Shown here: positions 861 through 20,721 of the stretch, one piece after another | Layout of the letters: each line of letters opens with the position of its first letter | Position numbering within the stretch: position 1 is the stretch's first letter | Source of the DNA: Geobacter metallireducens GS-15 | GTDB taxonomy: Bacteria > Desulfobacterota > Desulfuromonadia > Geobacterales > Geobacteraceae | DNA: 32,000 bases | Assembly: GCF_000012925.1 (NCBI RefSeq) | Contig: NC_007517.1 | Span: forward strand, 2,280,001-2,312,000 | Reading direction: 5' to 3' | Notes under the pieces: generated by a model | Database searches by the model: none | Told to the model about the DNA's origin: nothing | The model's input: only the letters and a program-made list of their open reading frames with translations | Program-made: the position numbers and the translations under genes

Positions 861-1673
861 ATGACAGGAAGACTTTCAAGGCTCTCTCCCGAACCGGGGC
901 TCGTCGATTACTTCAACCTTCTCTATTCAGTCATACCAGCTGAAACCGATGAACTCGTGAAGGAAACATTTCGTCTCAGGTATCAGGTTTACTGCATCGA
1001 AAACGAGTTTGAACCTCCTTCCGAAACTTCACAGCAAATGGAAACCGACGAATTCGATAAGAACTCGGTGCACTCCATCATTAAATACAACAAAACAGGG
1101 CACTCTATCGGTTCTGTCAGAATGGTTTTGCCGAATGAACGGGATCACACCCGCAGCTTCCCCATCCAGAAGATATGCAGCCACTCGATATTCACCGACA
1201 GAAAACTGTTCTCCCTTTACAGACCTATCGAAATATCACGGTTCTGTCTCTCTAAAGAACTGCGGACGATGGCAAAGCCATGCAAACATATGTGCGTTCA
1301 ACTGACATCCACAAGAGCCCCCTTTTCACCATCCTTGCTTAATCAGCATGGGCCAATACTTGGACTGATCAGAGGGCTTGTCCAGATGAGTAGCGAAAAT
1401 CATGTTACCCATTGGTTCGCCATTATGGAACCGTCACTTATCAGGTTACTGGCTAAGCTCGCGATATATTTCAAACCTGTAGGATCCCTCATCAACTATC
1501 ATGGCATGAGACAACCGTGCTATATAGAACTGTCAGAGTTATTGCGGAGGGTCTTTTCCGAGCAGCCACTGGTGTGGGAGGTATTGACCAACAAGGGGCA
1601 GTTTGACCTGAATCTCACCAACTACAATGAAAGCCTTTCTGGTTCCAATCTGAATAAAATATCACGATACTGA
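861..1673 (+). CDS. N-acyl amino acid synthase / acyltransferase, PEP-CTERM-exosortase-system-associated type (LuxI/GNAT-like)
   Basis: SD AAGGAGG at 845-851 sits 9 nt before the ATG. The FRLRYQVYCIENEF..., SVRMVLPN, EISRFCLSKE and INYHGMRQP blocks are typical of the autoinducer-synthase-like acyltransferase family found next to exosortase genes. It is a paralog of the 1732-2433 gene. Confidence 0.75.
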   Translation: MTGRLSRLSPEPGLVDYFNLLYSVIPAETDELVKETFRLRYQVYCIENEFEPPSETSQQMETDEFDKNSVHSIIKYNKTGHSIGSVRMVLPNERDHTRSFPIQKICSHSIFTDRKLFSLYRPIEISRFCLSKELRTMAKPCKHMCVQLTSTRAPFSPSLLNQHGPILGLIRGLVQMSSENHVTHWFAIMEPSLIRLLAKLAIYFKPVGSLINYHGMRQPCYIELSELLRRVFSEQPLVWEVLTNKGQFDLNLTNYNESLSGSNLNKISRY

Positions 1674-1731: not shown

Positions 1732-2433
1732 TCACAGCATGTTGCTTTCAATGAATTTAAAGCAATCAGGGTCTTTTCTCTCCATTCCCAGCCTTAGTTC
1801 CTGCAAATTACCAAGATACGGTGTCCTGAGCCCATGATAATCGACCTCTGGACCAACCGGATGATAAATCATTCCAACCCGCTTCAAAAGTATGTATAAT
1901 CCCCTCTTCATCGCAACATACCAATGAGATAACCCCATATTCACACTGCTCAACAAAAGAAATTTATAAAACTCATGTACATAATTGCACTTCCGCAGAT
2001 CGTGAACGACACCTGCTCCAGATGGCAACGTTGCGTCATATCCTACGAGAGCGTCGTCTTCAATCCTCTTTCGATACTCTTTGCTGATAGCTAGGCGCGA
2101 AACCTCGCCAATCTTCACATTTTCAACACCCCGTAACGCGTGCTCATGCATTTCAGAAACAATTTCACAGTGCTGAATCATGGGATAGCCCAGTGCATTG
2201 GGAAGGATAATGCGAGCGGTACCCACGATGGACTCATCTTCAGTGCACCTGATGATGAAGTGTTCTGAAAAGTCGTCATATTCATTGCGCTCCATGCCGT
2301 CAGGATAATCCTTGGGATCCTCGAATCTCCATTCTTCGCAATACACTTTGAAGCGCAATCTATAAACCTCTTCCATCGTTTCATCATATTTGTTGGAAGT
2401 TTTGTCAACACATTCGAAGGTAAATGGAATCAT
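1732..2433 (-). CDS. second N-acyl amino acid synthase paralog (PEP-CTERM/exosortase-associated acyltransferase family)
   Basis: YRLRFKVYCEEWRF, ARIILPN, EVSRLAISKEYR and VDYHGLRTP blocks align with the 861-1673 product. The start is trimmed to the ATG at 2433 (MIPFTFE...), because the longer track ORF runs into the IS630 end and the transposase start. Confidence 0.75.
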   Translation of the reverse strand: MIPFTFECVDKTSNKYDETMEEVYRLRFKVYCEEWRFEDPKDYPDGMERNEYDDFSEHFIIRCTEDESIVGTARIILPNALGYPMIQHCEIVSEMHEHALRGVENVKIGEVSRLAISKEYRKRIEDDALVGYDATLPSGAGVVHDLRKCNYVHEFYKFLLLSSVNMGLSHWYVAMKRGLYILLKRVGMIYHPVGPEVDYHGLRTPYLGNLQELRLGMERKDPDCFKFIESNML

Positions 2434-2496
2434 AAATGTCACCTGACGCGCTAAACATGCCGCTGATGGAACTCGATCCGGACAATCTTGTGCGGT

Positions 2497-3620
2497 TAGT
2501 TGTGTCAAATAAAATTGCGGTGTGGTATAGTGCCTCTCATGGCACGCACCCACGAACAATATGAATTGAAAGCAGAAGATCGTAAGTCATTGGAGTCAAT
2601 CCTACGATCTCCCAAGGCTGCCCAGAGTACTGTCTCTCGGGCGAAAGTGATTCTGTTTACTGCTGACGGCAAAACCGCTGAAGAGGTTGCTGTCGCCCTT
2701 GGCACAACCCCTCGTGCAGTCTACAGGTGGCGCAAACGTTTCAAGGATCATGGCCTTGAAGGCCTTCACGATCGACCACGTAGCGGACAACCGAAAAAGC
2801 TCTCCGAGAAAGTGGTTAAGGAAGTATTGCGGCTGTCTGTCGAATGCATCCCTCGAGAGGCGACCCATTGGAGCGTACGCCTGATGGCCAAGGCTGCCGG
2901 GATTACCACGTGGCAGGTTCGACAGATATGGGATGCCGCGGACCTGAAGCCCCATCGCCTCAAGACCTTTAAGATCAGCTATGATCCGCAGTTTGCCGAC
3001 AAAGTCATCGATGTCGTCGGCTTGTACATGAACCCTCCCGACAATGCTGTTGTCTTGGCGGTGGATGAGAAAACCCAGATTCAGGCACTGGACCGCACCC
3101 AACCGATGTTGCCAATGAAGCCCGGCCAGATCGAGCGCCGTACCCATGATTACAAACGCCATGGCACAACCAGCCTGTACGCTGCCTTCGATGTTCTGAC
3201 GGGGGAGGTGATCGGTCGAGTCACCAAAAGGCACCGAGCCAAAGAATTTCTCTATTTTCTGCGCCAGATTGACCGCTCAGTGCCCAAGGAGCTGGACCTC
3301 CATGTCATCTTGGATAACAGCAGTACTCACAAGACAGCGGAGGTCAACAAGTGGCTCGCCGAGCATCCTCGGTTCATTTTACATTTCAACCCCACCAGCG
3401 CTTCGTGGCTCAATGCCGTGGAAGGGTGGTTTGCCCAATTGGAACGGCGGGCGATTCACCGGGGTGTTTTCACCAGCGTCAAAGAGCTTCGCGACGAAAT
3501 TCAACGGTTCAACAAAGTGCATAATGCACATAGTGCCAAACCCTTCAAATGGACCCAAAAGCGCCAATGTCATCATTGAGGCAGTCAACAGAGCAAAGCA
3601 ATCATTAACTGACACGACTA
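2497..3620 (+). mobile_element. IS630-family insertion sequence (about 1.12 kb)
   Basis: A single DDE transposase ORF is flanked by imperfect terminal inverted repeats: TAGTTGTGTCAAATA (2497-2511) and the reverse complement of TAACTGACACGACTA (3606-3620), 12/15 identical. Both ends carry TA, consistent with the IS630 TA target. Confidence 0.8.
2539..3579 (+). CDS. IS630-family transposase
   Basis: There is an N-terminal HTH region (AEEVAVALGTTPRAVYRWRKRF). DDE-type blocks are VLAVDEKT, ILDNSSTHKT and SWLNAVEGWF. The start is taken at the ATG at 2539 (MARTHEQ...). Confidence 0.9.
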   Translation: MARTHEQYELKAEDRKSLESILRSPKAAQSTVSRAKVILFTADGKTAEEVAVALGTTPRAVYRWRKRFKDHGLEGLHDRPRSGQPKKLSEKVVKEVLRLSVECIPREATHWSVRLMAKAAGITTWQVRQIWDAADLKPHRLKTFKISYDPQFADKVIDVVGLYMNPPDNAVVLAVDEKTQIQALDRTQPMLPMKPGQIERRTHDYKRHGTTSLYAAFDVLTGEVIGRVTKRHRAKEFLYFLRQIDRSVPKELDLHVILDNSSTHKTAEVNKWLAEHPRFILHFNPTSASWLNAVEGWFAQLERRAIHRGVFTSVKELRDEIQRFNKVHNAHSAKPFKWTQKRQCHH

Positions 3621-5946: not shown

Positions 5947-6915
5947 TTATTTTTTCGCCCTACGGCGCATGAAACCACCTGCAAGCAGAAGCCCAAGCCC
6001 GGTTAAAGCGAAAGTCGACGGTTCGGGAACAGCGGCAATTTGAAAACTGTTGTTGCCGTCAGCCTGGAAAATGATATCAGGGCCATTTATACCATTCACT
6101 GCGCCGAGTGCAGGAACAACGTTAGCCCCTGCGGATACGTCCCAGAACAGCCTGGACGGATCAGCTTGCAGGAAGGGTAGATTGTTCGATGTATTGAAAT
6201 TAAGGGACATAATAATAAAGTCCAAATTAAGGGGATTGGTAATAACAACCTCATCCTTATTGATCTGATCTACTGCGATAGTGACAGCGGTGGATCCTGT
6301 ACCATAAATGGTTTGTTGGCCCGCCCAATCATCACCTAAATTCTGATCAAGGAGACCAGTGTTGGCTTCGGTGCTAAAATTGCTCCGAGTAACGCCTACA
6401 ACCCTGCCCGACAGAAATTCATTGCCGTCATTAAAGCCGGTTCCAGCGAGGTCACTGGCATTAATGGCAGATTTATAGAATTTTACATAATTGGGCAAAG
6501 TTGGGTCAAAGAAGAAACTGGCGTTTGCTGGCACCGGACCCGCAATGGCACTTGTATACCCTCTTTCACCAAACGCAATCATTGCTGTTATTTCGTACGT
6601 TGAATTCAAGCCGGAACCAAGAATAGGTTTATTGGTTGCGTTATTATAGTTACCCAGTATTGCCTGATAATAAAGATTAAAATGTGTCTGCAAGGCAGGA
6701 TTTACTGCAGGGTCGGTAGCAGGATTTCCAGTACCATCTGTTACTGCAAGCGGTACAGCATTTACACCTAGGGCGTTACCCACGGACCAGTCGAGTTGGG
6801 CTACCGGCTGGCTCACTCCCGCAAAATCGATGGTTGTCGTTGCAGCAAATGCATTACTTGCAGCGCAGGTAGCAAACAATGCTGCTGTGATGGCTACGTT
6901 CTTTACAGTTTTCAT
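5947..6915 (-). CDS. PEP-CTERM sorting-domain protein (secreted, exosortase substrate)
   Basis: The signal peptide is MKTVKNVAITAALFATCAASNAFA. The C-terminus VPEPSTFALTGLGLLLAGGFMRRRAKK gives PEP motif, TM helix and Arg cluster. A strong SD GGAGAGGAGGAG precedes the ATG. Confidence 0.9.
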   Translation of the reverse strand: MKTVKNVAITAALFATCAASNAFAATTTIDFAGVSQPVAQLDWSVGNALGVNAVPLAVTDGTGNPATDPAVNPALQTHFNLYYQAILGNYNNATNKPILGSGLNSTYEITAMIAFGERGYTSAIAGPVPANASFFFDPTLPNYVKFYKSAINASDLAGTGFNDGNEFLSGRVVGVTRSNFSTEANTGLLDQNLGDDWAGQQTIYGTGSTAVTIAVDQINKDEVVITNPLNLDFIIMSLNFNTSNNLPFLQADPSRLFWDVSAGANVVPALGAVNGINGPDIIFQADGNNSFQIAAVPEPSTFALTGLGLLLAGGFMRRRAKK

Positions 6916-7575: not shown

Positions 7576-10500
7576 ATGCGAAAATGTGCATACTATTTTT
7601 TACTAATTGCAACATTGTTATGTTTAAGCACTATTCAAACGCACGCTGCGTCTGGCACGTTGCAATTCAAGGACACTAGACTTGGCAACATCACAGTGTC
7701 AGTATTTGATTGGTCGCCGGATAACGGTCTGGCGGTAGGGGTGGTACCATTACCGACTTCACCGGCTTCATCTGATTTCAATCTGCTTCTGCATAGTTTT
7801 CTTACTAATTTTAAAGGACCCAATGGAATAATAGCAGGAAGTGGATTGAACGCTGATTATGAAATTACTGTTGTTATGGGTGCTACCCAAACAGGATTTA
7901 CAGATTCGAGCACCATTCCTGTTAATACGAATTTCAAATTAAGTTCTAATAAGACTATTAATTATTTCAAAGTATATTACGATACAAATTTAAATTCCAA
8001 CTCATTAACTGGCCAAGGATACAATGACGGCATTCTCCTAATGAGTGGAACCATCAGCAATGACAATGGCAATTTTTCTATTACAACTAATGCTACAGTC
8101 CCTTTAGATAATTTTTTGAACAATAATTATCCTACTGCGACCACTTTACAAGGCGGCGGTGGCTATGCAGCTTCTGTAGCTATTGATTATTACAATCCAG
8201 AATTTATAACTTTCACATCTCCGAATGCACGTTTATCTTTCGCCACTAACACCAATGAAGTGACCCCTTTCAATCAAGCCGACCCATCTGCTGCTTTTTA
8301 TAATGGAACCGGCTTTCAAACCCCAATCAGAGGTGCCGGCAACGTTAATGGCATGCCAGCAACACAAGGTAAGGCTGATTTCCAGTTCCAGGCTGATGCT
8401 AACAGTAGCGTCCAGTACGAGGCATGCACCGGCTCCATAGGTGACATAGTCTGGCACGACCTGAACCGCAACGGCATCCAGGATCCCGGCGAACCAGGTA
8501 TAGACGGAGTGCCGGTCAGTATCTACAAAGCCTCAGATAACAGCCTTATCACTACGACAACCACTGGTGTCGGCCCGCTGAACCAGCATGGCTACTACCA
8601 GTTCACCGGTCTGTGCGCCGGCAACTACAAGGTAGTTGTCGACGAGACGAAACTGCCGACAGGATTTACCCCAACAACGTCGAACGTGGGAAGTGACCCT
8701 GCGATCGACAGCAACGGCAGCCCGGCTTCCGTCACGCTTCCCACTGACTCCAGTTCCGATCAGACCATCGATTTCGGCTATGTCTCTCCCTGTACCGGTT
8801 CTATCGGTGACTTTGTCTGGCTGGACATGAATCGTGACGGCATTCAGAACGACGGTCCGAACGCCGGCATTAACGGCGCAACAATCAGGCTCTATAACGA
8901 CACCCTTACGACGGTGCTGGCAACAACGACAAGCGGTCCCAACGGTTATTATCAGTTCTCAGGACTCTGTGCCGGAACATATCAAGTGGTTGTCGATGAA
9001 ACCACTCTGCCACCGGGACTGCTGCAGACAGGCTCCCTACAGGGCACTGACCGCGCGATCGACAGCAACGGCAGCCCTGCCTCCGTGACTCTGCCCACTG
9101 ACTCCAGCTCGGATCAGACCATTGACTTTGGTTATGTCGCCCGCTGCACCGGCACAATCGGAGATTATGTGTGGCTGGACCAGAACTTCAACAGCCTTCA
9201 GGATGCCGGTGAACCGGGAATCGATGGTGTAACCATCAATCTGCGGAAGGCATCCGACAACAGCCTCATTACAACGACAACAACTGGCTCCAATGGCTTC
9301 TATCAATTTACTGGCCTCTGTGCCGGCGACTACTTGGTGGAATCCACTCCTCCGCCGGGCTTGAGTCGTGTACCACTTTGCAGCGCTGACCAAACGATCG
9401 GAAATGACAGTAATTGTTCACCAGCGCAGGTGACTCTGCCGGCTGACAACTCCTCAAACCAGACCATTGATTTCGGTTTTGAGAGTGCCTGTACCGGGAC
9501 GATTGGCGACTTCGTCTGGGAAGACGCAAACCGCAACGGGATTCAGGACGCTGGAGAACAGGGAATCAATGGTGTAACCCTCAATCTGCGGAGAATATCA
9601 GACTACAGCGTTATTGCTACCACGACCACCAATACCGTCGGTTACTACCAGTTTAACGGACTCTGTGCAGGCAGCTACAAAGTCGAGGCTATTACACCAA
9701 CTGGCTACATGCCGACCCCATCATGTAGCTCTGATCAGACGATTGCAAATGACAGCAACTGCAATCCAGCACAGGTGGATCTGCCTTCTAATTTTAGTCC
9801 CAATCAGACCATCGACTTCGGCTTCTTCACCCCCTGCTCCGGATCGCTTGGCGACTTTGTCTGGAACGACCTGAACCACAACGGTATCCAGGATGCCAAC
9901 GAGCCGGGCATCGCCGGCGTTCCGGTAACCATCACCGGCACCAACATCTACGGCACCGCCGTCAATACGACGGTCAACACCAACGCCAGCGGCATGTACA
10001 CCTTCACCGGCCTGTGCCAGGGAACCTACACCGTTACCGTGCCGACCCCTGCGGGCTACACTCCGACGCTGACCGGCAAGGGTACCACCGCCACCGACAG
10101 CAACGGCAGCCCCGCTTCCGTGACGCTGCCCGCTGACAATTCCTCGGATCAGACCATCGACTTCGGCTTCTTCACCCCCTGCTCCGGATCGATTGGCGAC
10201 TTTGTCTGGAACGACCTGAACCACAACGGCGTTCAGGATGCCAACGAACCGGGCATTGCCGGCGTTCCGGTAACCATCACCGGCACCAACATCTACGGCA
10301 CTGCCGTCAGCATGACGGTCAACACCAACGCCAGCGGCATGTATCAGTTCACCGGCCTGTGCCAGGGAACCTACACCGTTACCGTGCCGACCCCTGCGGG
10401 CTACACTCCGACGCTGACCGGCAAGGGTACCACCGCCACCGACAGCAACGGCAGCCCCGCAACCGTGGTCCTGGCCGCTGACAATTCCTCGGATCAGACC

Positions 10501-13500
10501 ATCGACTTCGGCTTCTTCACCCCCTGCTCCGGATCGATTGGCGACTTTGTCTGGAACGACCTGAACCACAACGGTATCCAGGATGCCAACGAACCGGGCA
10601 TCGCCGGCGTTCCCGTCACCATCACCGGCACCAACATCTACGGCACTGCCGTCAGCATGACGGTCAACACCAACGCCAGCGGCATGTACACCTTCACCGG
10701 CCTGTGCCAGGGAACCTACACCGTCACCGTGCCGACCCCTGCGGGATTCACTCCGACGCTGACCGGCAAGGGTACCACCGCTACCGACAGCAACGGCAGC
10801 CCCGCAACCGTGGTCCTGGCCGCTGACAATTCCTCGGATCAGACCATCGACTTCGGATTCTTCACCCCCTGCTCCGGATCGATTGGCGACTTTGTCTGGA
10901 ACGACCTGAACCACAACGGTATCCAGGATGCCAACGAACCGGGCATCGCCGGCGTTCCCGTCACCATCACCGGCACCAACATCTACGGCACTACCGTCAG
11001 CATGACGGTCAACACCAACGCCAGCGGCATGTACACCTTCACCGGCCTGTGCCAGGGAACCTACACCGTCACCGTGCCGACCCCTGCGGGATTCACTCCG
11101 ACGCTGACCGGCAAGGGTACCACCGCTACTGACAGCAACGGCAGCCCCGCAACCGTGGTCCTGGCCGCTGACAATTCCTCGGATCAGACCATCGACTTCG
11201 GATTCTTCACCCCCACGCCCTCCATCAAAATCATAAAATACACCAACGGTGATGATGCCGATCTTCCCACCGGTCCCATGATCCCCGTTGGCGGCTTGGT
11301 CACGTGGACGTACGTGGTCACCAACACCGGCAATGTGGATCTCGCCAACGTTGTCGTCACCGACGACAAGCTCGGCGCCATTTGCACCATCGGTCCCCTG
11401 GCTACTGGTGCCTCACAGACCTGCACCAAGACCGGTACGGCCGTTATGGGCCAGTATGCCAACACAGGTACCGTTACGGGCACGTTCGGTACTACGACCG
11501 TTACCGACCAGAATCCAAGCCACTACTTCGGTGTCAAGGCGAGCATCGACATCCGCAAACAGGCCGAAGGTCCCGATACCCGGAACTTCCCTGCCGGATC
11601 AAATGTTCCCTTTGAAATCGTTGTCACCAACACCGGCAACGTGGCACTGAACAACGTCGTAGTTACCGATCAGATGGTACCGGCATGCAATGCAACCATC
11701 GGCACCCTTAACCCAGGGCAGATTTATACCTACACCTGTACTGCCCCCATGGTGCTCAATAACTTTACGAACACCGCCTGCACAGAAGGAATGGCCGGCA
11801 CCACCACCGTTACCGATTGCGATGATTCCACGGTAGTGGTCACCACTCCCAAGATTAGCATTAAGAAGTACACCAACGGCGACGACGCCGATTTGGCACC
11901 CGGTCCCTACATCCCGGTTGGCGGCGAAGTCAAGTGGGAGTACGTAGTCACCAACACGGGCAATGTGGATCTCACCAACGTTGTCGTCACCGACGACAAG
12001 CTCGGCGCCATCTGCACCATTGGTCCCTTGGCGGCAGGCGCTTCCCAGACCTGCACCAAGACCGGCACTGCCGTTATGGGCCAGTACGCCAACATGGGTA
12101 CCGTTACCGGTCAGTACAACGGCACTACCGTAACCGATCAGAATCCGAGCCACTACTTCGGTGTCAAGGCAAGTATCGACATCCGTAAGCAGGCCGAAGG
12201 TCCTGATACCCGAAGCTTCCCTGCCGGATCAGATGTTCCATTTGAAATCGTTGTCACCAACACCGGCAACGTAGCATTGAACAATGTCAAAGTTACCGAT
12301 CAGTTGGTGCCGGCATGCAACACGACCATCGGAACGTTAAACCCAGGGCAGGTTTATTCCTACACCTGCACTGCTCCGATGGTACTCAACGGCTTCACAA
12401 ACACCGCATGTACGGAGGGGATGGCCGGGGCCGTCGTGGTAACTGATTGTGACGATTCTACAGTCACGGTTACTACTGCAAAGATTGACATCGCAAAATA
12501 CGTTTCCATCGATGGCAAAACCTGGTTCCACACGGACAGCAGTGATGTCCTCAAGGTCGCGCTGTGTGCCACCTGCGAAGAGGAATACGACAAGGAGCAC
12601 TGCGACTATAACCACGACAACAAGTGCGATGAGCGAGACGTCGATTACTGCAAGTCCAACAAGTACGAGTGCGACAGGCACGACTCCGAGCATGGCAGCA
12701 ACAAGCGCAAGCACCGCTGCGATGACAGCTCGAACAAGTCCTACTGCGAGGACAAGGCAGAGGATGCGCACGAGCGGGATCACAGCGACTACAACAACGA
12801 TGGCAAGTGTGATGAGCGCGACATCGATTACTGCAGGTACAACAAATCCACCTGCGACCGGCACGATGCCGACCATCACAGCACTACGCGGTCTTACAGG
12901 TGCGACGACAGTTACAGCAAGACCACGTGCGAAAGCAAGAAGAAGGATGAAGAGAAGTCTGACAAGGAGCGCAGCGACTACAACCGCGACGGCAAGTGTG
13001 ACGAGCGCGACGTAGCCTACTGCCAAAACAACAAGTCATCCTGTGACTCGTTTGACAGGGACCGTGGCAACCTCAAGCGGCGCTTCCGGTGTGACGACAG
13101 CACCAGCGGCGGTAAGTGCGAGGATATGGCACGCACAGAGCACGACAAGGATGACGGAGATTACAACAACGATGGCAAGTGCGACGAGCGCGACATCGAC
13201 TACTGCAAGTACAACCGCTCTGCTTGCGATCAGCACGACAAGAACCATGGCAGCGGCAAGCGCACCTACCGCTGCGACGACAGCTCGAACGAGTCATCGT
13301 GCGAGGACAGGGTCCGGAAGGAACATGACCACGACCGCAGTGACTATGATCATGACGGGAAGCTCGACGAGGACGACATCAAATACTGCCAGGAAAACAA
13401 GGATCGATGCGTCAAGCAAGACCGTGACTACAGCAACTGCAAACGCACCTACCGGTGCGACGACAGCGAACACAGGGAAGATTGCGGCTACTACGCCCAG

Positions 13501-15390
13501 CGTGAGCATGACAAGGATGACAGCGACTACAATCACGACGGCAAGTGCGACGAGCGTGACATCGACTACTGCAAGAACGAGCAGGAGCGGTGCGACGAGC
13601 ACGACAGGGACCATAAGCTGACTAAACGTACCTATCGGTGCGACGACAGCTCTTACAAGGATTCATGTGGTTCCTACGCGCAACGGGAGCATGACAAGGA
13701 CCGCAGCGACTACAACCGCGATGGCAAGCGCGACGAGCGCGACATCGACTACTGCAAGGGGAACGATGAGGAGTGCATCAAGCACGACAAGGGGCACGGC
13801 AACTTCACCCGCTCATACCGGTGCGATGAGAGCTCCAACAAAACCCTTTGCGAATCGACCCGGTATTCGCAAAACAAGAGTGAGAAGGACGACAGCGACT
13901 ACAATCGCGACGGCAAGTGCGACGAGCGCGACATCAGCTACTGCAAGTACAATCGCGACGCTTGCGACAAGTTCGATAGTGATCGCGGCAACAGGAAACG
14001 GACCTATCGTTGCGACGACAGCTCCTACAAGACCTCGTGCCAGGATAAGGCCGAGTATGAGCATGATAGGGACCACGCCGACTACAACCGCGATGGCAAG
14101 TGCGACGAGCGCGACATCGACAATTGCAAGAACAGTCCCTACGGATGCGATGATCATGACAGGGATCACGGCGATTCCAAGCGGCACTATCGCTGCGACG
14201 ACAGTTATGACAAGACGCGGTGTGAAGAGCGTTCAAGAGAGGAACGTGATCGGGAATCCAGCTGCAGCGGAAGTGGCAGTTATCCCTCACCGGCATGCGG
14301 CAAGGTCTACTTCAAGTACCTCGTGACCAATACCGGATCAACTACCTTGACTAACCTCACCCTCACCGACGACAAGAACAGCGTGAGCAGTTGCACCATC
14401 CCGGCAGGGCTGAATCCCGACGGTTCCTTCAGCTGCATAATCGGGCCCCTGCCGGCCAAGGCCGGACTCCAGGTAAACACCGCTACGGCAACAGGAACAT
14501 ATGGCGGCGTAACCACTACTGATACCGACAAGGCCTACTATTACGGGTGCGACGGAACCGCACCGAAATCCCCCGGTTACTGGAAGAACCATCCCGAGGC
14601 CTGGCCGGTGGAATCAATCACCATCGGTGGCAAGACGTATACAAAGGCCCAGGCCATCAGCCTCATGAACACTCCGGTCAGCGGAGACAAGACCTACACC
14701 CTGTTCAAGGCACTGGTTGCTGCTAAACTGGATGCCATGGGTTGCGGCGACTCATCCTGCGTAACCGACACGATCGCCAAGTCCGATGCCTGGATGGCCC
14801 TGCACCCCGTGGGAAGCGGAGTTGCCGGTGATAGTTATGCCTGGAAGCAGGCAGAACCGTGGTATCTGATACTTGACGATTACATCAACGGGAAGCTGGT
14901 GTGCGGAGGGAGCAACACCTGTACTCCTCCGCCTCCTCCCGCACCAACCTGCGGTCAATGCAGTGGCGGTACAACGAAGCTGGCACTCAAGTACACTGGT
15001 GATTGCCTTGCAAAGGTCGAGGTAAAAGACAGCAACGGCCGGACGCTGTTCTCCAGCACCGTTGCACCGGACAGCAGCTTCAACTTTACCGGCATGTCCA
15101 CCAATGGCACCATGGGACAATACGTGAAGGTCTACGTCAACGGCAGCTACAAGGCTACGATCTACACGGATTGCTCCAAACCGATCTATCCAGGGATGGG
15201 AATTGGTTCCTTCAACGTTGTGGAGGGGTATAGCCTGAATGGCGGGAAGTTCTGCCGGGTATCGTCATCATCCTGCACAAGCTATGACGACGATCACTAC
15301 AGCAGTGACTACTGCGGCTCGCACGACGGAGAATCAAGCTGCCTCAACTTCTTCGACCACGAAAGCAGTGATAGTCATCACGATGATTGA
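7576..15390 (+). CDS. giant secreted repeat protein (2604 aa), adhesin-like
   Basis: A 7.8-kb uninterrupted ORF with SD AAAGGAGAGG before the ATG and the signal peptide ...STIQTHA/AS. The domain order is an N-terminal module shared with the PEP-CTERM protein, 8 SdrD-B-like repeats, 4 DUF11 domains, 9 Asp/Cys-rich repeats inside a fifth DUF11, and C-terminal Cys-containing modules. GxIGDxVWxDxNxNGxQD repeats match the SdrD B-like domain, and VTNTGNVxLxNVxVTD blocks match DUF11. No PEP-CTERM is present at the C-terminus. Confidence 0.9.
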   Translation: MRKCAYYFLLIATLLCLSTIQTHAASGTLQFKDTRLGNITVSVFDWSPDNGLAVGVVPLPTSPASSDFNLLLHSFLTNFKGPNGIIAGSGLNADYEITVVMGATQTGFTDSSTIPVNTNFKLSSNKTINYFKVYYDTNLNSNSLTGQGYNDGILLMSGTISNDNGNFSITTNATVPLDNFLNNNYPTATTLQGGGGYAASVAIDYYNPEFITFTSPNARLSFATNTNEVTPFNQADPSAAFYNGTGFQTPIRGAGNVNGMPATQGKADFQFQADANSSVQYEACTGSIGDIVWHDLNRNGIQDPGEPGIDGVPVSIYKASDNSLITTTTTGVGPLNQHGYYQFTGLCAGNYKVVVDETKLPTGFTPTTSNVGSDPAIDSNGSPASVTLPTDSSSDQTIDFGYVSPCTGSIGDFVWLDMNRDGIQNDGPNAGINGATIRLYNDTLTTVLATTTSGPNGYYQFSGLCAGTYQVVVDETTLPPGLLQTGSLQGTDRAIDSNGSPASVTLPTDSSSDQTIDFGYVARCTGTIGDYVWLDQNFNSLQDAGEPGIDGVTINLRKASDNSLITTTTTGSNGFYQFTGLCAGDYLVESTPPPGLSRVPLCSADQTIGNDSNCSPAQVTLPADNSSNQTIDFGFESACTGTIGDFVWEDANRNGIQDAGEQGINGVTLNLRRISDYSVIATTTTNTVGYYQFNGLCAGSYKVEAITPTGYMPTPSCSSDQTIANDSNCNPAQVDLPSNFSPNQTIDFGFFTPCSGSLGDFVWNDLNHNGIQDANEPGIAGVPVTITGTNIYGTAVNTTVNTNASGMYTFTGLCQGTYTVTVPTPAGYTPTLTGKGTTATDSNGSPASVTLPADNSSDQTIDFGFFTPCSGSIGDFVWNDLNHNGVQDANEPGIAGVPVTITGTNIYGTAVSMTVNTNASGMYQFTGLCQGTYTVTVPTPAGYTPTLTGKGTTATDSNGSPATVVLAADNSSDQTIDFGFFTPCSGSIGDFVWNDLNHNGIQDANEPGIAGVPVTITGTNIYGTAVSMTVNTNASGMYTFTGLCQGTYTVTVPTPAGFTPTLTGKGTTATDSNGSPATVVLAADNSSDQTIDFGFFTPCSGSIGDFVWNDLNHNGIQDANEPGIAGVPVTITGTNIYGTTVSMTVNTNASGMYTFTGLCQGTYTVTVPTPAGFTPTLTGKGTTATDSNGSPATVVLAADNSSDQTIDFGFFTPTPSIKIIKYTNGDDADLPTGPMIPVGGLVTWTYVVTNTGNVDLANVVVTDDKLGAICTIGPLATGASQTCTKTGTAVMGQYANTGTVTGTFGTTTVTDQNPSHYFGVKASIDIRKQAEGPDTRNFPAGSNVPFEIVVTNTGNVALNNVVVTDQMVPACNATIGTLNPGQIYTYTCTAPMVLNNFTNTACTEGMAGTTTVTDCDDSTVVVTTPKISIKKYTNGDDADLAPGPYIPVGGEVKWEYVVTNTGNVDLTNVVVTDDKLGAICTIGPLAAGASQTCTKTGTAVMGQYANMGTVTGQYNGTTVTDQNPSHYFGVKASIDIRKQAEGPDTRSFPAGSDVPFEIVVTNTGNVALNNVKVTDQLVPACNTTIGTLNPGQVYSYTCTAPMVLNGFTNTACTEGMAGAVVVTDCDDSTVTVTTAKIDIAKYVSIDGKTWFHTDSSDVLKVALCATCEEEYDKEHCDYNHDNKCDERDVDYCKSNKYECDRHDSEHGSNKRKHRCDDSSNKSYCEDKAEDAHERDHSDYNNDGKCDERDIDYCRYNKSTCDRHDADHHSTTRSYRCDDSYSKTTCESKKKDEEKSDKERSDYNRDGKCDERDVAYCQNNKSSCDSFDRDRGNLKRRFRCDDSTSGGKCEDMARTEHDKDDGDYNNDGKCDERDIDYCKYNRSACDQHDKNHGSGKRTYRCDDSSNESSCEDRVRKEHDHDRSDYDHDGKLDEDDIKYCQENKDRCVKQDRDYSNCKRTYRCDDSEHREDCGYYAQREHDKDDSDYNHDGKCDERDIDYCKNEQERCDEHDRDHKLTKRTYRCDDSSYKDSCGSYAQREHDKDRSDYNRDGKRDERDIDYCKGNDEECIKHDKGHGNFTRSYRCDESSNKTLCESTRYSQNKSEKDDSDYNRDGKCDERDISYCKYNRDACDKFDSDRGNRKRTYRCDDSSYKTSCQDKAEYEHDRDHADYNRDGKCDERDIDNCKNSPYGCDDHDRDHGDSKRHYRCDDSYDKTRCEERSREERDRESSCSGSGSYPSPACGKVYFKYLVTNTGSTTLTNLTLTDDKNSVSSCTIPAGLNPDGSFSCIIGPLPAKAGLQVNTATATGTYGGVTTTDTDKAYYYGCDGTAPKSPGYWKNHPEAWPVESITIGGKTYTKAQAISLMNTPVSGDKTYTLFKALVAAKLDAMGCGDSSCVTDTIAKSDAWMALHPVGSGVAGDSYAWKQAEPWYLILDDYINGKLVCGGSNTCTPPPPPAPTCGQCSGGTTKLALKYTGDCLAKVEVKDSNGRTLFSSTVAPDSSFNFTGMSTNGTMGQYVKVYVNGSYKATIYTDCSKPIYPGMGIGSFNVVEGYSLNGGKFCRVSSSSCTSYDDDHYSSDYCGSHDGESSCLNFFDHESSDSHHDD
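8425..11214 (+). repeat. eight tandem SdrD-B-like domain repeats (366, 354, then 6 x 345 bp), in frame within the giant gene
   Basis: Units start at 8425, 8791, 9145, 9490, 9835, 10180, 10525 and 10870. Each begins C(T/S)G(S/T)(I/L)GD and ends DQTIDFG(F/Y). Confidence 0.85.
9835..11214 (+). repeat. four nearly identical 345-bp tandem copies (the last four SdrD-B-like units)
   Basis: Period is exactly 345 bp. The protein units differ at only a handful of residues, for example AVNTTV/AVSMTV/TVSMTV, GYTPT/GFTPT and ASVTLPA/ATVVLAA. Confidence 0.9.
11218..12477 (+). repeat. 2 x 630-bp duplication encoding two pairs of DUF11 domains
   Basis: PSIKIIKYTNGDDADL... (from 11218) and PKISIKKYTNGDDADL... 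(from 11848) are 210-aa units that are highly similar over their full length. Confidence 0.85.
12604..14262 (+). repeat. nine tandem 61-63-aa Asp/Cys/His/Lys/Arg-rich repeats (183-189 bp each)
   Basis: The hand-derived consensus is DYNxDGKCDERDIDYCKxNxxxCDxHDxDHGxxKRTYRCDDSSxKxxCE..(E/R/D-rich). Unit lengths were counted as 61,63,61,61,61,61,63,61,61 aa. The ninth unit starts at 14080, as predicted from the sum of the preceding units. Confidence 0.9.
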
Positions 15391-15455: not shown

Positions 15456-15524
15456 ATTACTCCAACGATTCACGAGTACTTGAAACTGATTGTCAGTGTG
15501 GTAAGAGTCTCAGGGGAGGAGTTC

Positions 15525-16850
15525 ATGAGAGTCAGCAGGGCTGTTGCCATACTCTTCATCGGGCTGCTGATAATGCAGCATTTCCGTCCAGACGCCCATG
15601 CTGGTTATGTCGTGAAGAATCGTATCATTACGAATTCTGCAACGAACGGGCAGCTCTTGCCGTGGGGTACAGGGAGAATCGCCTCCTTCGGGGAAGTATC
15701 GGCGTTTCTCTATCGGACGGAATCCTCCGGAGACTGGCTCTATATGTATGATGGCTCTGGAAATGAGTCGCACATTCCACTCCCAGACCGTATTGATCTG
15801 AATGACCGTGCCAATACCGAATATCTCCTGGCAAGCCCCACCGATCTTTGGATATGGTCGGGGGTATTGGGGCAGGCCGCGTTGCGCCATTATCGGCTGT
15901 TGACAAACGGCAGGAGTCGATTGCCGGACAAGGCGGTACGTGTTTCCATTACCAAGGTAGGGGATGAAGAAACTCGGCCAGGGGCACTGCTGAAGCTCGC
16001 GAGCGGAGGTATTATCGCAGTCTGGCACCAGTTTAGGTACCATCTGGATCGCCGGTTGGATATGGGGTTTGCCTACGTGAACCCAAAGGGGGGAATTACG
16101 ACCAACTACCCGATCTCAGCACCCGGCAGGGAAGGAACACCCGTCGCGACGCGATGGGCCATGGCGCAGCATCCGGCCGACGGAAGCATCTGGGCGTTTT
16201 TTAAGCGGGACAGCTATCATGAGATCAGTGCTCTTCATCTGACGGAGACAGCAAAAGGGATTAAACTCGATTGGGTCAAGACGGATTTCATCGGAAGGAA
16301 CGACGGAATCCACGAACCCGAAGGGGAATATCCCTATCTTACCGCTGTTGCTGATTCTGGTAACAATTCGATTGCTCTCGCCTATCAGAATAAGCGTTCT
16401 GAAATCTTGTATGCTACCGATGGGGACGGGAACCTCATGAATGGCAGTTGCGGTCAAAGCCTTTCACAACGGATGGAGCCCTACTTTTTCGCCAAGCGCT
16501 CATTAGTGAGTATCGTGCGGATAACAGCGGACGGTAGGAAAGCATTCCAGGATTTTCCGGGGCTTGTCGAGCGGACCCAGGAGTTTGGACTATCGGTTGC
16601 TGATCGGCTCTGGGTCCTCTACCGGCGAATTGATTGCGAAACGAGCAACTATGAGATGCTTCAGCGGCAGGGCGAAGTCATGCTCCGCTATAATGATGGT
16701 GCATGGAGCGAACCTCTGATACTCGGCAAGTTGGATGTTGAGAAGGAGTACTACGGGGCTTCTCTGTTCTCTTCGCCTTATCAGCCTCACTTTCTGATGC
16801 GTCTTAACGATGGGAAATTACATCTCTTTGAAGCGAAATCCAGCCATTAG
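15525..16850 (+). CDS. secreted hypothetical protein (441 aa)
   Basis: SD GGAGGA sits just upstream of the ATG at 15525 and is preferred over the TTG at 15480 used by the track. The N-terminal signal peptide is MRVSRAVAILFIGLLIMQHFRPDAHA. I recognise no family motif. Confidence 0.65.
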   Translation: MRVSRAVAILFIGLLIMQHFRPDAHAGYVVKNRIITNSATNGQLLPWGTGRIASFGEVSAFLYRTESSGDWLYMYDGSGNESHIPLPDRIDLNDRANTEYLLASPTDLWIWSGVLGQAALRHYRLLTNGRSRLPDKAVRVSITKVGDEETRPGALLKLASGGIIAVWHQFRYHLDRRLDMGFAYVNPKGGITTNYPISAPGREGTPVATRWAMAQHPADGSIWAFFKRDSYHEISALHLTETAKGIKLDWVKTDFIGRNDGIHEPEGEYPYLTAVADSGNNSIALAYQNKRSEILYATDGDGNLMNGSCGQSLSQRMEPYFFAKRSLVSIVRITADGRKAFQDFPGLVERTQEFGLSVADRLWVLYRRIDCETSNYEMLQRQGEVMLRYNDGAWSEPLILGKLDVEKEYYGASLFSSPYQPHFLMRLNDGKLHLFEAKSSH

Positions 16851-19698: not shown

Positions 19699-20721
19699 AT
19701 GAATCTTCGCTCAATCTCGATCGCCTGTATGCTCTTCCTTGCCTGTATATTGCCGGCAACGGCCAAGGAAACCAAAGAGATAACCTTCAAGCTCAGGAAC
19801 GCGGAACCTGTCGTTTTCAGCCACGACTATCACCTTGCCAAGTATAACAATAACTGCCGTATTTGTCATAACACCCTTTTCAATCTTAAGAATCGTAAAC
19901 GTTACACAATGCTCGAGATGGAAAAAGGTAAGTCATGCGGCGCCTGCCACACCGGCATCAAGGCCTTCAGCGTTGCCGATGACGCTGAATGCGTTCGCTG
20001 CCACAAAGGCAAGCCCCGCCCAGTAGTCTTCAAGATGAAGGGGGCCACTGATGCGGTCTTCAAGCACGAGCTTCACGTCCCCAAGCTCGGCGGCAAATGC
20101 CGCACCTGCCATAGCAACAAGAATATTGTCGGTGCCCGGAAGGTTACCATGGCCCAGATGGAGAAGGGGAAATCCTGCGGCGCCTGCCATGACAGCAAGA
20201 AGGCATTTACGGTGTCCGGCAACTGCGGCAAATGCCACCAGGGAATGGCGCCGCCGAAAACCGTGGCGTTCAAAATCAAGGGAGTTGCCGACGCCGCCTT
20301 CAGCCACGACTTCCATCTCGGCATGTACAAGTGTGCCGATTGCCACACGAAACTCTTTGCATACCGGGCCGGCGCCAAACATAACACCATGGCCGACATG
20401 GAAAAAGGTAAATCCTGCGGCGCCTGCCATAACGGCAAGGATGCCTTTGCCTCCACTGGTGACTGCGGTAAGTGCCACCCGGGCCTCAAGCCGGCCAAGC
20501 TTACCTGGAAGACAAGCCTCGGTGAAGCCTTCTTCGACCATGGATTCCATCTGGGGATGTTCAAATGCGCCGATTGCCACACCAAGATCTTCAAATACAA
20601 GAAGGGCGCTTCCTCTGCCACCATGGCTCAGATGGAAGCGGGCGCTTCCTGCGGCACATGCCACAACGGCAAGGACGCCTTCTCGGTGAAGGACGACTGC
20701 GTCAAGTGTCACAACATGTAA
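19699..20721 (+). CDS. dodecaheme c-type cytochrome built from four c7-type triheme modules (GSU1996-like c7 polymer)
   Basis: There is a signal peptide plus exactly 12 CXXCH motifs: CRICH, CGACH, CVRCH, CRTCH, CGACH, CGKCH, CADCH, CGACH, CGKCH, CADCH, CGTCH and CVKCH. They occur in four repeated units of about 80 aa, each with M(A/E)xMEKGKSCGACH. Confidence 0.92.
   Translation: MNLRSISIACMLFLACILPATAKETKEITFKLRNAEPVVFSHDYHLAKYNNNCRICHNTLFNLKNRKRYTMLEMEKGKSCGACHTGIKAFSVADDAECVRCHKGKPRPVVFKMKGATDAVFKHELHVPKLGGKCRTCHSNKNIVGARKVTMAQMEKGKSCGACHDSKKAFTVSGNCGKCHQGMAPPKTVAFKIKGVADAAFSHDFHLGMYKCADCHTKLFAYRAGAKHNTMADMEKGKSCGACHNGKDAFASTGDCGKCHPGLKPAKLTWKTSLGEAFFDHGFHLGMFKCADCHTKIFKYKKGASSATMAQMEAGASCGTCHNGKDAFSVKDDCVKCHNM

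Follow-up and report, generated by a model that had tools for sequence, protein, structure and literature searches.

Host protein and nine-unit array

The window analysed here is a stretch of 32,000 nucleotides (nt) of Geobacter metallireducens GS-15 (contig NC_007517.1, positions 2,280,001 to 2,312,000), and our subject is a tandem array of nine Asp- and Cys-rich units encoded within one of its genes. The product of this gene is an exact database match to G. metallireducens GS-15 ABB32272.1 (UniProt Q39U02), which is annotated as a "repeat-containing protein". The segment that holds the array, 12478-14547, is in frame (offset 0) with the open reading frame (ORF) 7576-15390 (+), and its translation runs from AKIDIAKYVSIDGKTW to TDTDKAYYYG. 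From its N-terminus, the host protein consists of a Sec-type signal peptide (MRKCAYYFLLIATLLCLSTIQTHA, at the start of the 2604-aa GenBank version), an N-terminal region of approximately 285 aa with no family assignment in Pfam, eight SdrD_B domains (739 bits in eight stretches), and four intact DUF7507/DUF11 domains. Next come a fifth, split DUF7507 domain that carries the array and a C-terminal region of 280 aa. In Pfam, DUF7507 scored 161 bits in five stretches of the host protein, and the older DUF11 model PF01345 matched weakly (16.8 bits); in NCBIfam, the TIGR01451 DUF11-type repeat reached 71 bits over the whole protein. The RefSeq version (WP_187148441) has 2345 aa versus 2604 aa in GenBank; its start is presumably located about 259 codons downstream (at about 8353 versus 7576), and that version would be without the signal peptide. 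Literature searches on the protein accessions and on Geobacter DUF11/SdrD proteins returned nothing specific.

An earlier note, made from the sequence of the window, had described nine units of 61-63 aa with 44 Cys in 553 aa, four Cys in unit 7, shifted positions in unit 5, and the two flanks, all of which were confirmed (Table 1). The DY[ND]xD[GN]K motifs start at aa 1677, 1738, 1801, 1862, 1923, 1984, 2045, 2108, and 2169, with spacings of 61, 63, 61, 61, 61, 61, 63, and 61 aa. The Cys count was 44 in the 553-aa frame used previously, which begins at DYN, and 45 in the frame of aa 1673-2225 used here, because the latter takes in an extra Cys directly before the loop of unit 1. At loop position 8, Leu is present in unit 5, which has an additional Cys at its position 37, and R in unit 7, with its four Cys. 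When the nine units were aligned with MAFFT, 16 columns were invariant (D5, Y6, D9, K11, D13, E14, D16, C20, C27, D31, R39, R42, C43, D44, S46, and C52), and the protein identity between units was 39-69%. Over 52 units from seven arrays, D5, Y6, D9, D16, C20, C27, D31, C43, S46, and C52 were still invariant. The divergence of the units at the DNA level, also described earlier, was borne out by a mean nucleotide identity between units of 65% (55-74%), with a mean of 56% at third codon positions, and Tandem Repeats Finder (TRF) recovered only 2-2.6 copies of the array at 74-78%. Elsewhere in the same gene, at 9803-11214, TRF found a 345-nt SdrD_B repeat in 4.1 copies with 96% nucleotide identity; this repeat is a recent intragenic duplication, unlike the old Cys/Asp units.

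Table 1. Positions in the window of the host gene, the parts of the split domain and its array, and the neighbouring genes (HMM, hidden Markov model)
Feature	Position	Strand	Details and basis
Host gene	7576-15390	+	2604 aa; ORF list and translation
Strand A of the split fifth DUF7507	12478-12525	+	aa 1635-1650, AKIDIAKYVSIDGKTW; alignment with the four intact domains; AlphaFold2
N-side connector	12526-12591	+	aa 1651-1672, FHTDSSDVLKVALCATCEEEYD; conserved Cys pair
Array of nine 61-63-aa units	12592-14250	+	553 aa (aa 1673-2225)
Unit 1 (61 aa)	12592-12774	+	loop DYNHDNKCDERD at 12604-12639; unit HMM 81 bits; alignment
Unit 2 (63 aa)	12775-12963	+	loop 12787-12822; alignment, unit HMM; first unit of the AlphaFold2 tri-unit model
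Unit 3 (61 aa)	12964-13146	+	loop 12976-13011; Phe30/Arg34 instead of His30/His34
Unit 4 (61 aa)	13147-13329	+	loop 13159-13194; alignment, unit HMM, AlphaFold2 tri-unit model
Unit 5 (61 aa), most divergent	13330-13512	+	loop DYDHDGKLDEDD at 13342-13377
Unit 6 (61 aa)	13513-13695	+	loop 13525-13560; alignment, unit HMM
Unit 7 (63 aa)	13696-13884	+	loop DYNRDGKRDERD at 13708-13743; alignment, unit HMM
Unit 8 (61 aa)	13885-14067	+	loop 13897-13932; Phe30/Arg34 variant
Unit 9 (61 aa)	14068-14250	+	loop 14080-14115; alignment, unit HMM
C-side connector	14251-14298	+	aa 2226-2241, RESSCSGSGSYPSPAC; two conserved Cys
Strands B to G of the split DUF7507	14299-14547	+	aa 2242-2324, GKVYFKYLVTNTG...YYYG; Pfam, AlphaFold2
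C-terminal region	14548-15390	+	always accompanies the split domain and array in complete relatives
FeeM-like N-acyl amino acid synthase/GNAT gene	861-1670	+	divergent pair beside the transposase gene
FeeM-like N-acyl amino acid synthase/GNAT gene	1735-2559	-	divergent pair beside the transposase gene
IS630-type DDE_3 transposase gene	2500-3576	+	
PEP-CTERM protein gene	5950-6915	-	
456-aa ORF directly downstream of the host gene	15480-16850		no Pfam match
340-aa multihaem cytochrome, four c7-type domains	19699-20718		Pfam Cytochrome_C7, 246 bits in four stretches

A DUF7507 domain interrupted after strand A

The earlier note had also proposed that the array is nested in a loop of a DUF11-type domain, a claim that can now be refined to the Pfam family DUF7507 and to an exit point after strand A. 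On the N side of the array, TAKIDIAKY aligns with strand A of the intact domains (TPKISIKKY and KASIDIRKQ), with I4, I6, and K8 invariant, and the point of insertion is the A-B connection. On the C side, DUF7507 was matched with 28.7-32.2 bits (versus a cutoff of 27), covering profile positions 21-97 only. When the flanks were modelled with AlphaFold2 after deletion of the array, they reconstituted a beta-sandwich with a predicted template modelling score (pTM) of 0.71, in which strand A (residues 4-12) was paired with a predicted local distance difference test score (pLDDT) of around 90 and confidence was low at the artificial junction only. A Foldseek search with this array-deleted domain returned generic immunoglobulin (Ig)-like sandwiches (AP2 appendage, TRAP-beta, and complement MG domains) at E-values of 0.005 or weaker, which is consistent with a predicted beta-sandwich and is not diagnostic.

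A homologue from a Nitrospirae-labelled metagenome-assembled genome (MAG), designated P0005, contains two tandem split domains (aa approximately 793-1230 and 1231-1610), each of which runs from strand A through an array (4.5 and 3.5 units, respectively) to the remainder of the sandwich. The first of these directly follows an SdrD_B domain, and its strand A is therefore not a spare strand of a preceding DUF7507. Both P0005 arrays (L006, 7265-12454) end in a half unit composed of the loop and the first two helices, and both half units have a loop-flanking Cys pair, like unit 1 of the Geobacter proteins. On both sequence and model grounds, the flanks form one DUF7507 (DUF11-like) beta-sandwich, and the array leaves it after strand A.

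The two connectors between the sandwich and the array are also conserved. An N-side Cys pair, in the form LCxTC, LCPAC, VCLC, or LCGPDGKPC, was found in all eight arrays examined, as was the C-side pattern C-x(9-13)-C-G-[KN]-V-[YW], the second Cys of which directly precedes strand B. The stretch CEEEYDKEH of the N-side connector, extending into the start of unit 1, replaces the linker helix before the first loop. The conservation of Cys pairs on both connectors suggests a basal clasp, and these pairs probably close the base of the array by disulfides.

Within the insertion as a whole (window 12541-14298 and its counterparts in loci L001-L006), the eight arrays contain 49, 49, 53, 49, 49, 53, 27, and 23 Cys, all odd numbers; the total of 96 Cys in the mature window protein is even. 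The persistence of an odd insertion count despite the gain and loss of individual Cys suggests compensated changes in the disulfide network. Changes between orthologues include the Cys at loop position 8, which different species have in unit 7 or in unit 9, and an extra Cys at linker position 56. The pre-loop Cys is present only together with the Cys at loop position 8, which is otherwise replaced by L, H, R, S, or D. An attempt to derive a disulfide map from Cys gain and loss between orthologues yielded no consistent pairing scheme.

Loop, predicted fold, and distribution of the unit

Each unit contains a 12-residue loop with D1, N3, D5, G6, D9, and D12, and with a putative backbone ligand at position 7. 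Eight of the nine units match the EF-hand loop pattern (PROSITE PS00018), and unit 7 fails at position 8 only; shuffles of the array that preserved its composition gave 0.019 matches on average versus the eight observed. Position 12 of the loop (unit D16) is Asp in all 52 units counted, as in dockerins, and the bidentate Glu of the canonical EF-hand does not occur there. In Pfam, Dockerin_1 matched the array with 35.4 bits (gathering cutoff, 22.9), the best stretch (aa 1984-2058, profile positions 3-50) bridging the loops of units 6 and 7, and it matched P0005 with 27.6 bits. When single junctions were searched, 22 of 46 matched Dockerin_1, all below threshold (best E-value 0.0059, 13 bits). 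All the matches in a PDB sequence search with a loop-centred frame were dockerins, one of which, 2vn6_B, has DYNNDGNVDSTD. With hhalign, an alignment to dockerin-like segments reached an E-value of 3.3e-5 over 22 columns, in a comparison set partly drawn from the matches of our own searches. Together with the helices predicted on either side of the loop, these results uphold the EF-hand/dockerin-like loop that had been recognised from the sequence, and they suggest that the loop is dockerin-type rather than calmodulin-type. A second PDB search, with the loop at the N-terminus of the unit, matched C20-S47 to the second EGF domain of factor VII (E-value approximately 0.05); this was rejected as a chance match because the score did not rise above noise and the unit has Asp where one of the matched EGF positions has Cys.

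The fold of the unit was predicted with AlphaFold2 from units 2-4, using a 23-row alignment. The tri-unit model had a pLDDT of 82.5, with no residue below 50, and a pTM of 0.57. The predicted order in each unit is loop (5-13), helix (14-22), helix (24-33), loop (34-48), and long helix (49-67). Helix 49-67 ends at D68, which is position 1 of the next loop, and helix 77-85 starts at position 10 of that loop; in the prediction, each junction between units is therefore a helix-loop-helix with EF-hand geometry, with an entering and an exiting helix around the loop. The second short helix, after the one that exits the loop, would carry C27-x2-H30-D31-x2-H34, the 15-residue loop would carry the invariant R-x-x-R-C-D-D-S, and the long helix that follows would double as the linker into the next unit. 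The array contains 114 Asp (21%) and 45 Cys (8%), has only 5.8% AVLIMFW residues, and carries a net charge of approximately -38. With so few hydrophobic residues relative to Asp and Cys, a conventional hydrophobic core is unlikely, and the sequence suggests a fold held instead by bound Ca2+ and by disulfides among the invariant C20, C27, C43, and C52. No neighbour was found in the PDB when the tri-unit model was searched with Foldseek, a null result that may be due in part to the method's poor performance on short helical repeats.

Comparisons with known calcium-binding modules place the likeness in the loop. The array loop, D-x-N-x-D-G-K-x-D-x-x-D, is near-identical to that of the type I dockerin (PF00404) in 2vn6_B, including Asp at position 12 and a helix directly after it. 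However, only approximately 16-22 residues align, position 8 is Cys instead of Val/Ile, and the packing of two F-hands has no equivalent, because the array loops are 61-63 aa apart and separated by a Cys-rich segment of approximately 45 aa without a dockerin counterpart. The canonical EF-hand shares ligand positions 1, 3, 5, 9, and 12 with the array, as well as Gly6 and the predicted helices ending at position 1 and starting at position 10. It differs in having Glu12 rather than Asp12; moreover, the array had no match to Pfam or calmodulin EF-hand profiles, shows no evident EF-hand pairing, and has helices almost without hydrophobic residues. Extracellular EF-hands bonded by disulfides exist, for example in SPARC/BM-40, and the array is likewise extracellular and Cys-bearing. 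The Excalibur calcium-binding domain, with its DxDxDGxxCE motif, resembles the unit as a bacterial extracellular Asp-rich loop with adjacent Cys and Glu, but the Cys register is off by one residue, the length and the other Cys differ, and there was no Pfam match at the thresholds used. A resemblance to thrombospondin type-3 repeats (PF02412), which had also been suggested, was not sustained. These repeats share with the array tandem Asp-rich calcium-type motifs interleaved with Cys and a scarcity of hydrophobic residues that would make the fold reliant on Ca2+ and disulfides; however, TSP_3 gave no match either to the array (E-values up to 1) or to single junctions (up to 10), the Cys spacing differs, and the array unit is predicted to be helical, whereas TSP3 repeats are without regular secondary structure.

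The unit has no model in NCBIfam, against which the array was searched, or in Pfam, where the sole match on the array was Dockerin_1, with an alignment confined to the calcium loops of two neighbouring units. Two fragments of orthologues were identified when 5.8 billion clusters were searched with word seeds. An exhaustive profile search of 1.84 billion representatives identified three proteins with the full unit and three marginal, loop-only matches (two dockerin-like proteins and one FG-GAP protein). A scan of one genome per species yielded six loci, namely those of G. hydrogenophilus, three MAGs labelled uncultured Geobacter, Pelobacter, and Deltaproteobacteria, a contig binned as Methanoregulaceae, and the Nitrospirae-labelled MAG, and a metagenome scan added one further orthologue and one true dockerin. 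The repeat family is thus real, unnamed, very rare, and lineage-restricted, in line with the earlier impression that it belongs to no named family; with no Pfam or NCBIfam model, it has three true members among the 1.84 billion representatives and no PDB neighbour in Foldseek. Two of the taxonomic labels stand apart. A 3.4-kb contig binned as a Methanoregulaceae archaeon (L002; JAJRBU010000184.1) carries a full Geobacter-type orthologue with nine units, and a fragment labelled Candidatus Methanoperedens (P0017) carries the C-terminal domain. These assignments are likely to reflect misbinning, although horizontal transfer is possible.

All the Geobacter-type orthologues have nine units. The window spacing of 61/63/61/61/61/61/63/61 recurred in L001, L003, L004, and L005, and L007 also has nine units. 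When units were compared between orthologues, unit i was closest to unit i in 8-9 of the nine rows, with identities of 65-75% versus 52-54% for other pairings, indicating that the nine-unit array predates these lineages. The dN/dS ratio (nonsynonymous to synonymous substitution rates) of the array was 0.09-0.15, as low as, or lower than, that of the adjacent C-terminal region, which excludes both recent slippage and a drifting linker. The previous proposal that the units are maintained by selection rather than being a product of recent slippage is therefore upheld by the low dN/dS and by the correspondence of units across species. Conservation among the orthologues extends over the split domain, the array, and the C-terminal region; the proteins vary in their N-terminal parts and in how many stalk domains they have.

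The C-terminal region comprises a domain of approximately 115 aa, a Pro-rich linker, a weak DUF7467-like beta domain, and a tail rich in Asp, His, Ser, and Cys. The approximately 115-aa domain (SPGYWKNHPEAWP...LDDYINGK; window 14548-14910, aa approximately 2325-2445) has no model in Pfam or NCBIfam and at least 889 homologues, found either by themselves in proteins of 150-300 aa or downstream of SdrD_B, DUF7507, TSP_3, or PF24517 domains; it is a candidate functional head of this class of proteins. The tail (DYCGSHDGESSC; window 15244-15348, aa 2557-2591) weakly resembles unit positions 18-36, with an independent E-value of 0.06, which is not significant.

Proposed role of the array and its genomic setting

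We propose, with moderate confidence, that the array is an acidic side arm, held by Ca2+ and disulfides and presented by the split domain, that serves in binding. In this scheme, the chain would leave the DUF7507 sandwich after strand A, form the array, and then return to complete the sandwich. Each loop would be a Ca2+ site of the dockerin/EF-hand type (D1, N3, D5, G6, the backbone at position 7, D9, and D12), as the loop sequences suggest, and the array would constitute a Ca2+-dependent, strongly acidic arm on a Sec-exported fibrillar surface protein. A module inserted in a loop lies outside the load path from one end of the protein to the other, and the array is therefore no in-line extender; the arm probably serves not to add length but to bind, be it a partner protein, cations, or the surface of a mineral or polymer. 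The conservation of the split domain, array, and C-terminal region alongside variable N-terminal parts and stalk number fits this proposal.

The binding role is suggested by analogy, because the split-domain topology of RTX adhesins projects ligand-binding modules. In these adhesins, ligand is bound by the domain that is projected; in AhLap, the chain departs from an Ig-like split domain once its first beta-strand is complete, and one of the inserts is a Ca2+-binding RTX roll for which no ligand is known (PMC12077191). The split domains of AhLap, FrhA, and MpIBP (PMC12077191) and that of the host protein are alike in that a sandwich is interrupted after strand 1, a module buds out, and the chain returns. 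They differ in that the host protein has a Sec signal peptide, its sandwich is of the DUF7507/DUF11 type, and its insert is a nine-unit, 553-aa tandem array rather than one globular domain; furthermore, no Pfam RTX-repeat family was reported in it, in an analysis that included no dedicated search for a type I secretion signal.

Several observations weigh against the side-arm proposal. The split-domain rule comes from a different class of proteins, the RTX adhesins, to which the host protein does not belong. The typical unit has five Cys, and, as the insertion counts are odd, one or more of the Cys in such a unit lack an obvious partner. Geobacter habitats are reducing, and extracellular disulfides are less secure there. 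No EF-hand family was found on the array in Pfam at E-values up to 1, only one of 46 single junctions matched a Pfam EF-hand (EF-hand_6, E-value 0.31), and hhalign detected no similarity to a calmodulin EF-hand profile (probability 0.2%). Joining the flanks, with or without the connectors, neither raised the DUF7507 score nor extended the match to profile positions 1-20, because the first strand is too short and divergent for the profile. Lastly, the tri-unit model has a pTM of just 0.57, and confidence in the arrangement of units is accordingly low, as it is for any contact between the start and the end of a nine-unit array.

The main rival is that the array is a transition-metal module, in which the Cys/His/Asp units bind Fe, Zn, Cu, Ni, or a similar metal for sequestration, attachment to metal oxides, or sensing. 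The ligands would be the helix-borne H30-x3-H34, the unpaired Cys at loop position 8, and an acidic cluster. We consider this unlikely, although the odd Cys counts and the variation at loop position 8 and at positions 30 and 34 leave scope for a transition-metal or redox function. A predicted helix carries H30 and H34 at a distance of four residues, the array contains eight HxxxH motifs, most units have an odd number of Cys, and the organism is metal-respiring, with a multihaem c7-type cytochrome encoded nearby (19699-20718). Positions 30 and 34 were H/H in 30 of the 52 units and F or L with R or K in ten; F30 accompanied R/K34 and never H34, which suggests that the two positions interact. However, unit 8 of G. 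hydrogenophilus, left out of the 52-unit count as near-identical, is F30/H34 and breaks this covariation. Instead of His30/His34, units 3 and 8 have F/R and unit 5 has Q/Y, and the Cys at loop position 8 is freely exchanged between orthologues, so that neither feature is essential. The invariant residues include Asp, Cys, and Arg but no His, the best-conserved motif is a loop for a hard cation (Ca2+), and no haem or known metal-cluster motif was found. Haem attachment by the host protein was rejected because the motif C-x(2-4)-CH, of which CXXCH is one form, is absent from the whole protein.

That the array is purely architectural seems rather improbable. It would then be a strut or spacer stiffened by Ca2+, or a charged bumper separating fibres, without a specific ligand, and binding would be the task of the N-terminal region or the SPGYWKNH domain. 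The host protein is indeed made of stalk-type domains (SdrD_B and DUF7507), its N-terminal region varies between orthologues, as adhesive tips often do, the C-terminal SPGYWKNH domain is widespread and could be a functional head, and the surface of the array is uniformly charged. Nevertheless, an element inserted in a loop carries no end-to-end load, and the retention of individual unit identities across species points to position-specific surfaces rather than generic filler.

A more far-reaching variant is that the unit founds a new extracellular calcium-binding fold, in which a dockerin-type loop is joined to a disulfide-stapled helical segment with a second, redox or transition-metal site, and the nine position-specific units close up as a ring or hairpin, clasped at the foot of the split sandwich; the shape or stickiness of this arm would vary with Ca2+, Fe(II), or redox state. 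This is a speculative idea with a small chance of being correct, and the same small chance attaches to the proposed composition of the second site (the Cys at loop position 8, H30-x3-H34, and D31/D44/D45). If true, the side arm would control how metal-respiring bacteria attach to Fe(III) minerals or partner cells.

Very improbable is a dockerin-like assembly module, in which the loops act as F-hands that bind a cohesin-like partner and tether proteins to the fibre. Dockerin_1 exceeded its gathering threshold on the array and on P0005, and both the PDB matches and the hhalign result point to dockerins. However, the similarity takes in the loop but, of the exiting helix, no more than the first turns, and the threshold was reached only by bridging loops 61 aa apart, the single junctions falling below it; the hhalign comparison set has the partial circularity described above. 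Dockerins have two F-hands in approximately 60-70 aa with hydrophobic helices, whereas the helices of the array are charged and Cys-bearing. Finally, the notion that there is no folded module at all, but a low-complexity, charged, disordered linker or a recent slippage-prone repeat, finds some encouragement in the extreme composition (D, R, K, S, E, and C make up 67% of array residues) but is extremely improbable in view of the dN/dS of approximately 0.1, the 16 invariant columns, the fixed number and order of units across species, a nucleotide identity between units of just 65%, and the predicted structure, with its pLDDT of 82.5 and no residue below 50.

The array adds to the catalogue of repeats a family without a Pfam or NCBIfam model, in which a familiar type of calcium loop is combined with an unfamiliar, putatively Cys-stapled helical segment with almost no hydrophobic core. 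It also extends split-domain presentation from type-I-secreted RTX adhesins to a Sec-exported SdrD_B/DUF7507 fibre, and the inserted module is here an entire tandem array, which has to bring its start and end together, a topological demand seldom placed on a repeat protein. The Geobacter surface proteins that touch minerals and partner cells are poorly known, and the array provides one conserved, testable module in GS-15. The wider impact is modest, as the family occurs in a handful of Geobacter-type lineages and one Nitrospirae-labelled MAG.

The genomic neighbourhood of the host gene is Geobacter-like, with the c7-type multihaem cytochrome, a PEP-CTERM protein, FeeM-like acyltransferases, and a sigma-54 activator (see Table 1 for positions). 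Among the fetched loci, the 456-aa ORF downstream of the host gene is conserved only in G. hydrogenophilus, with 79% identity.

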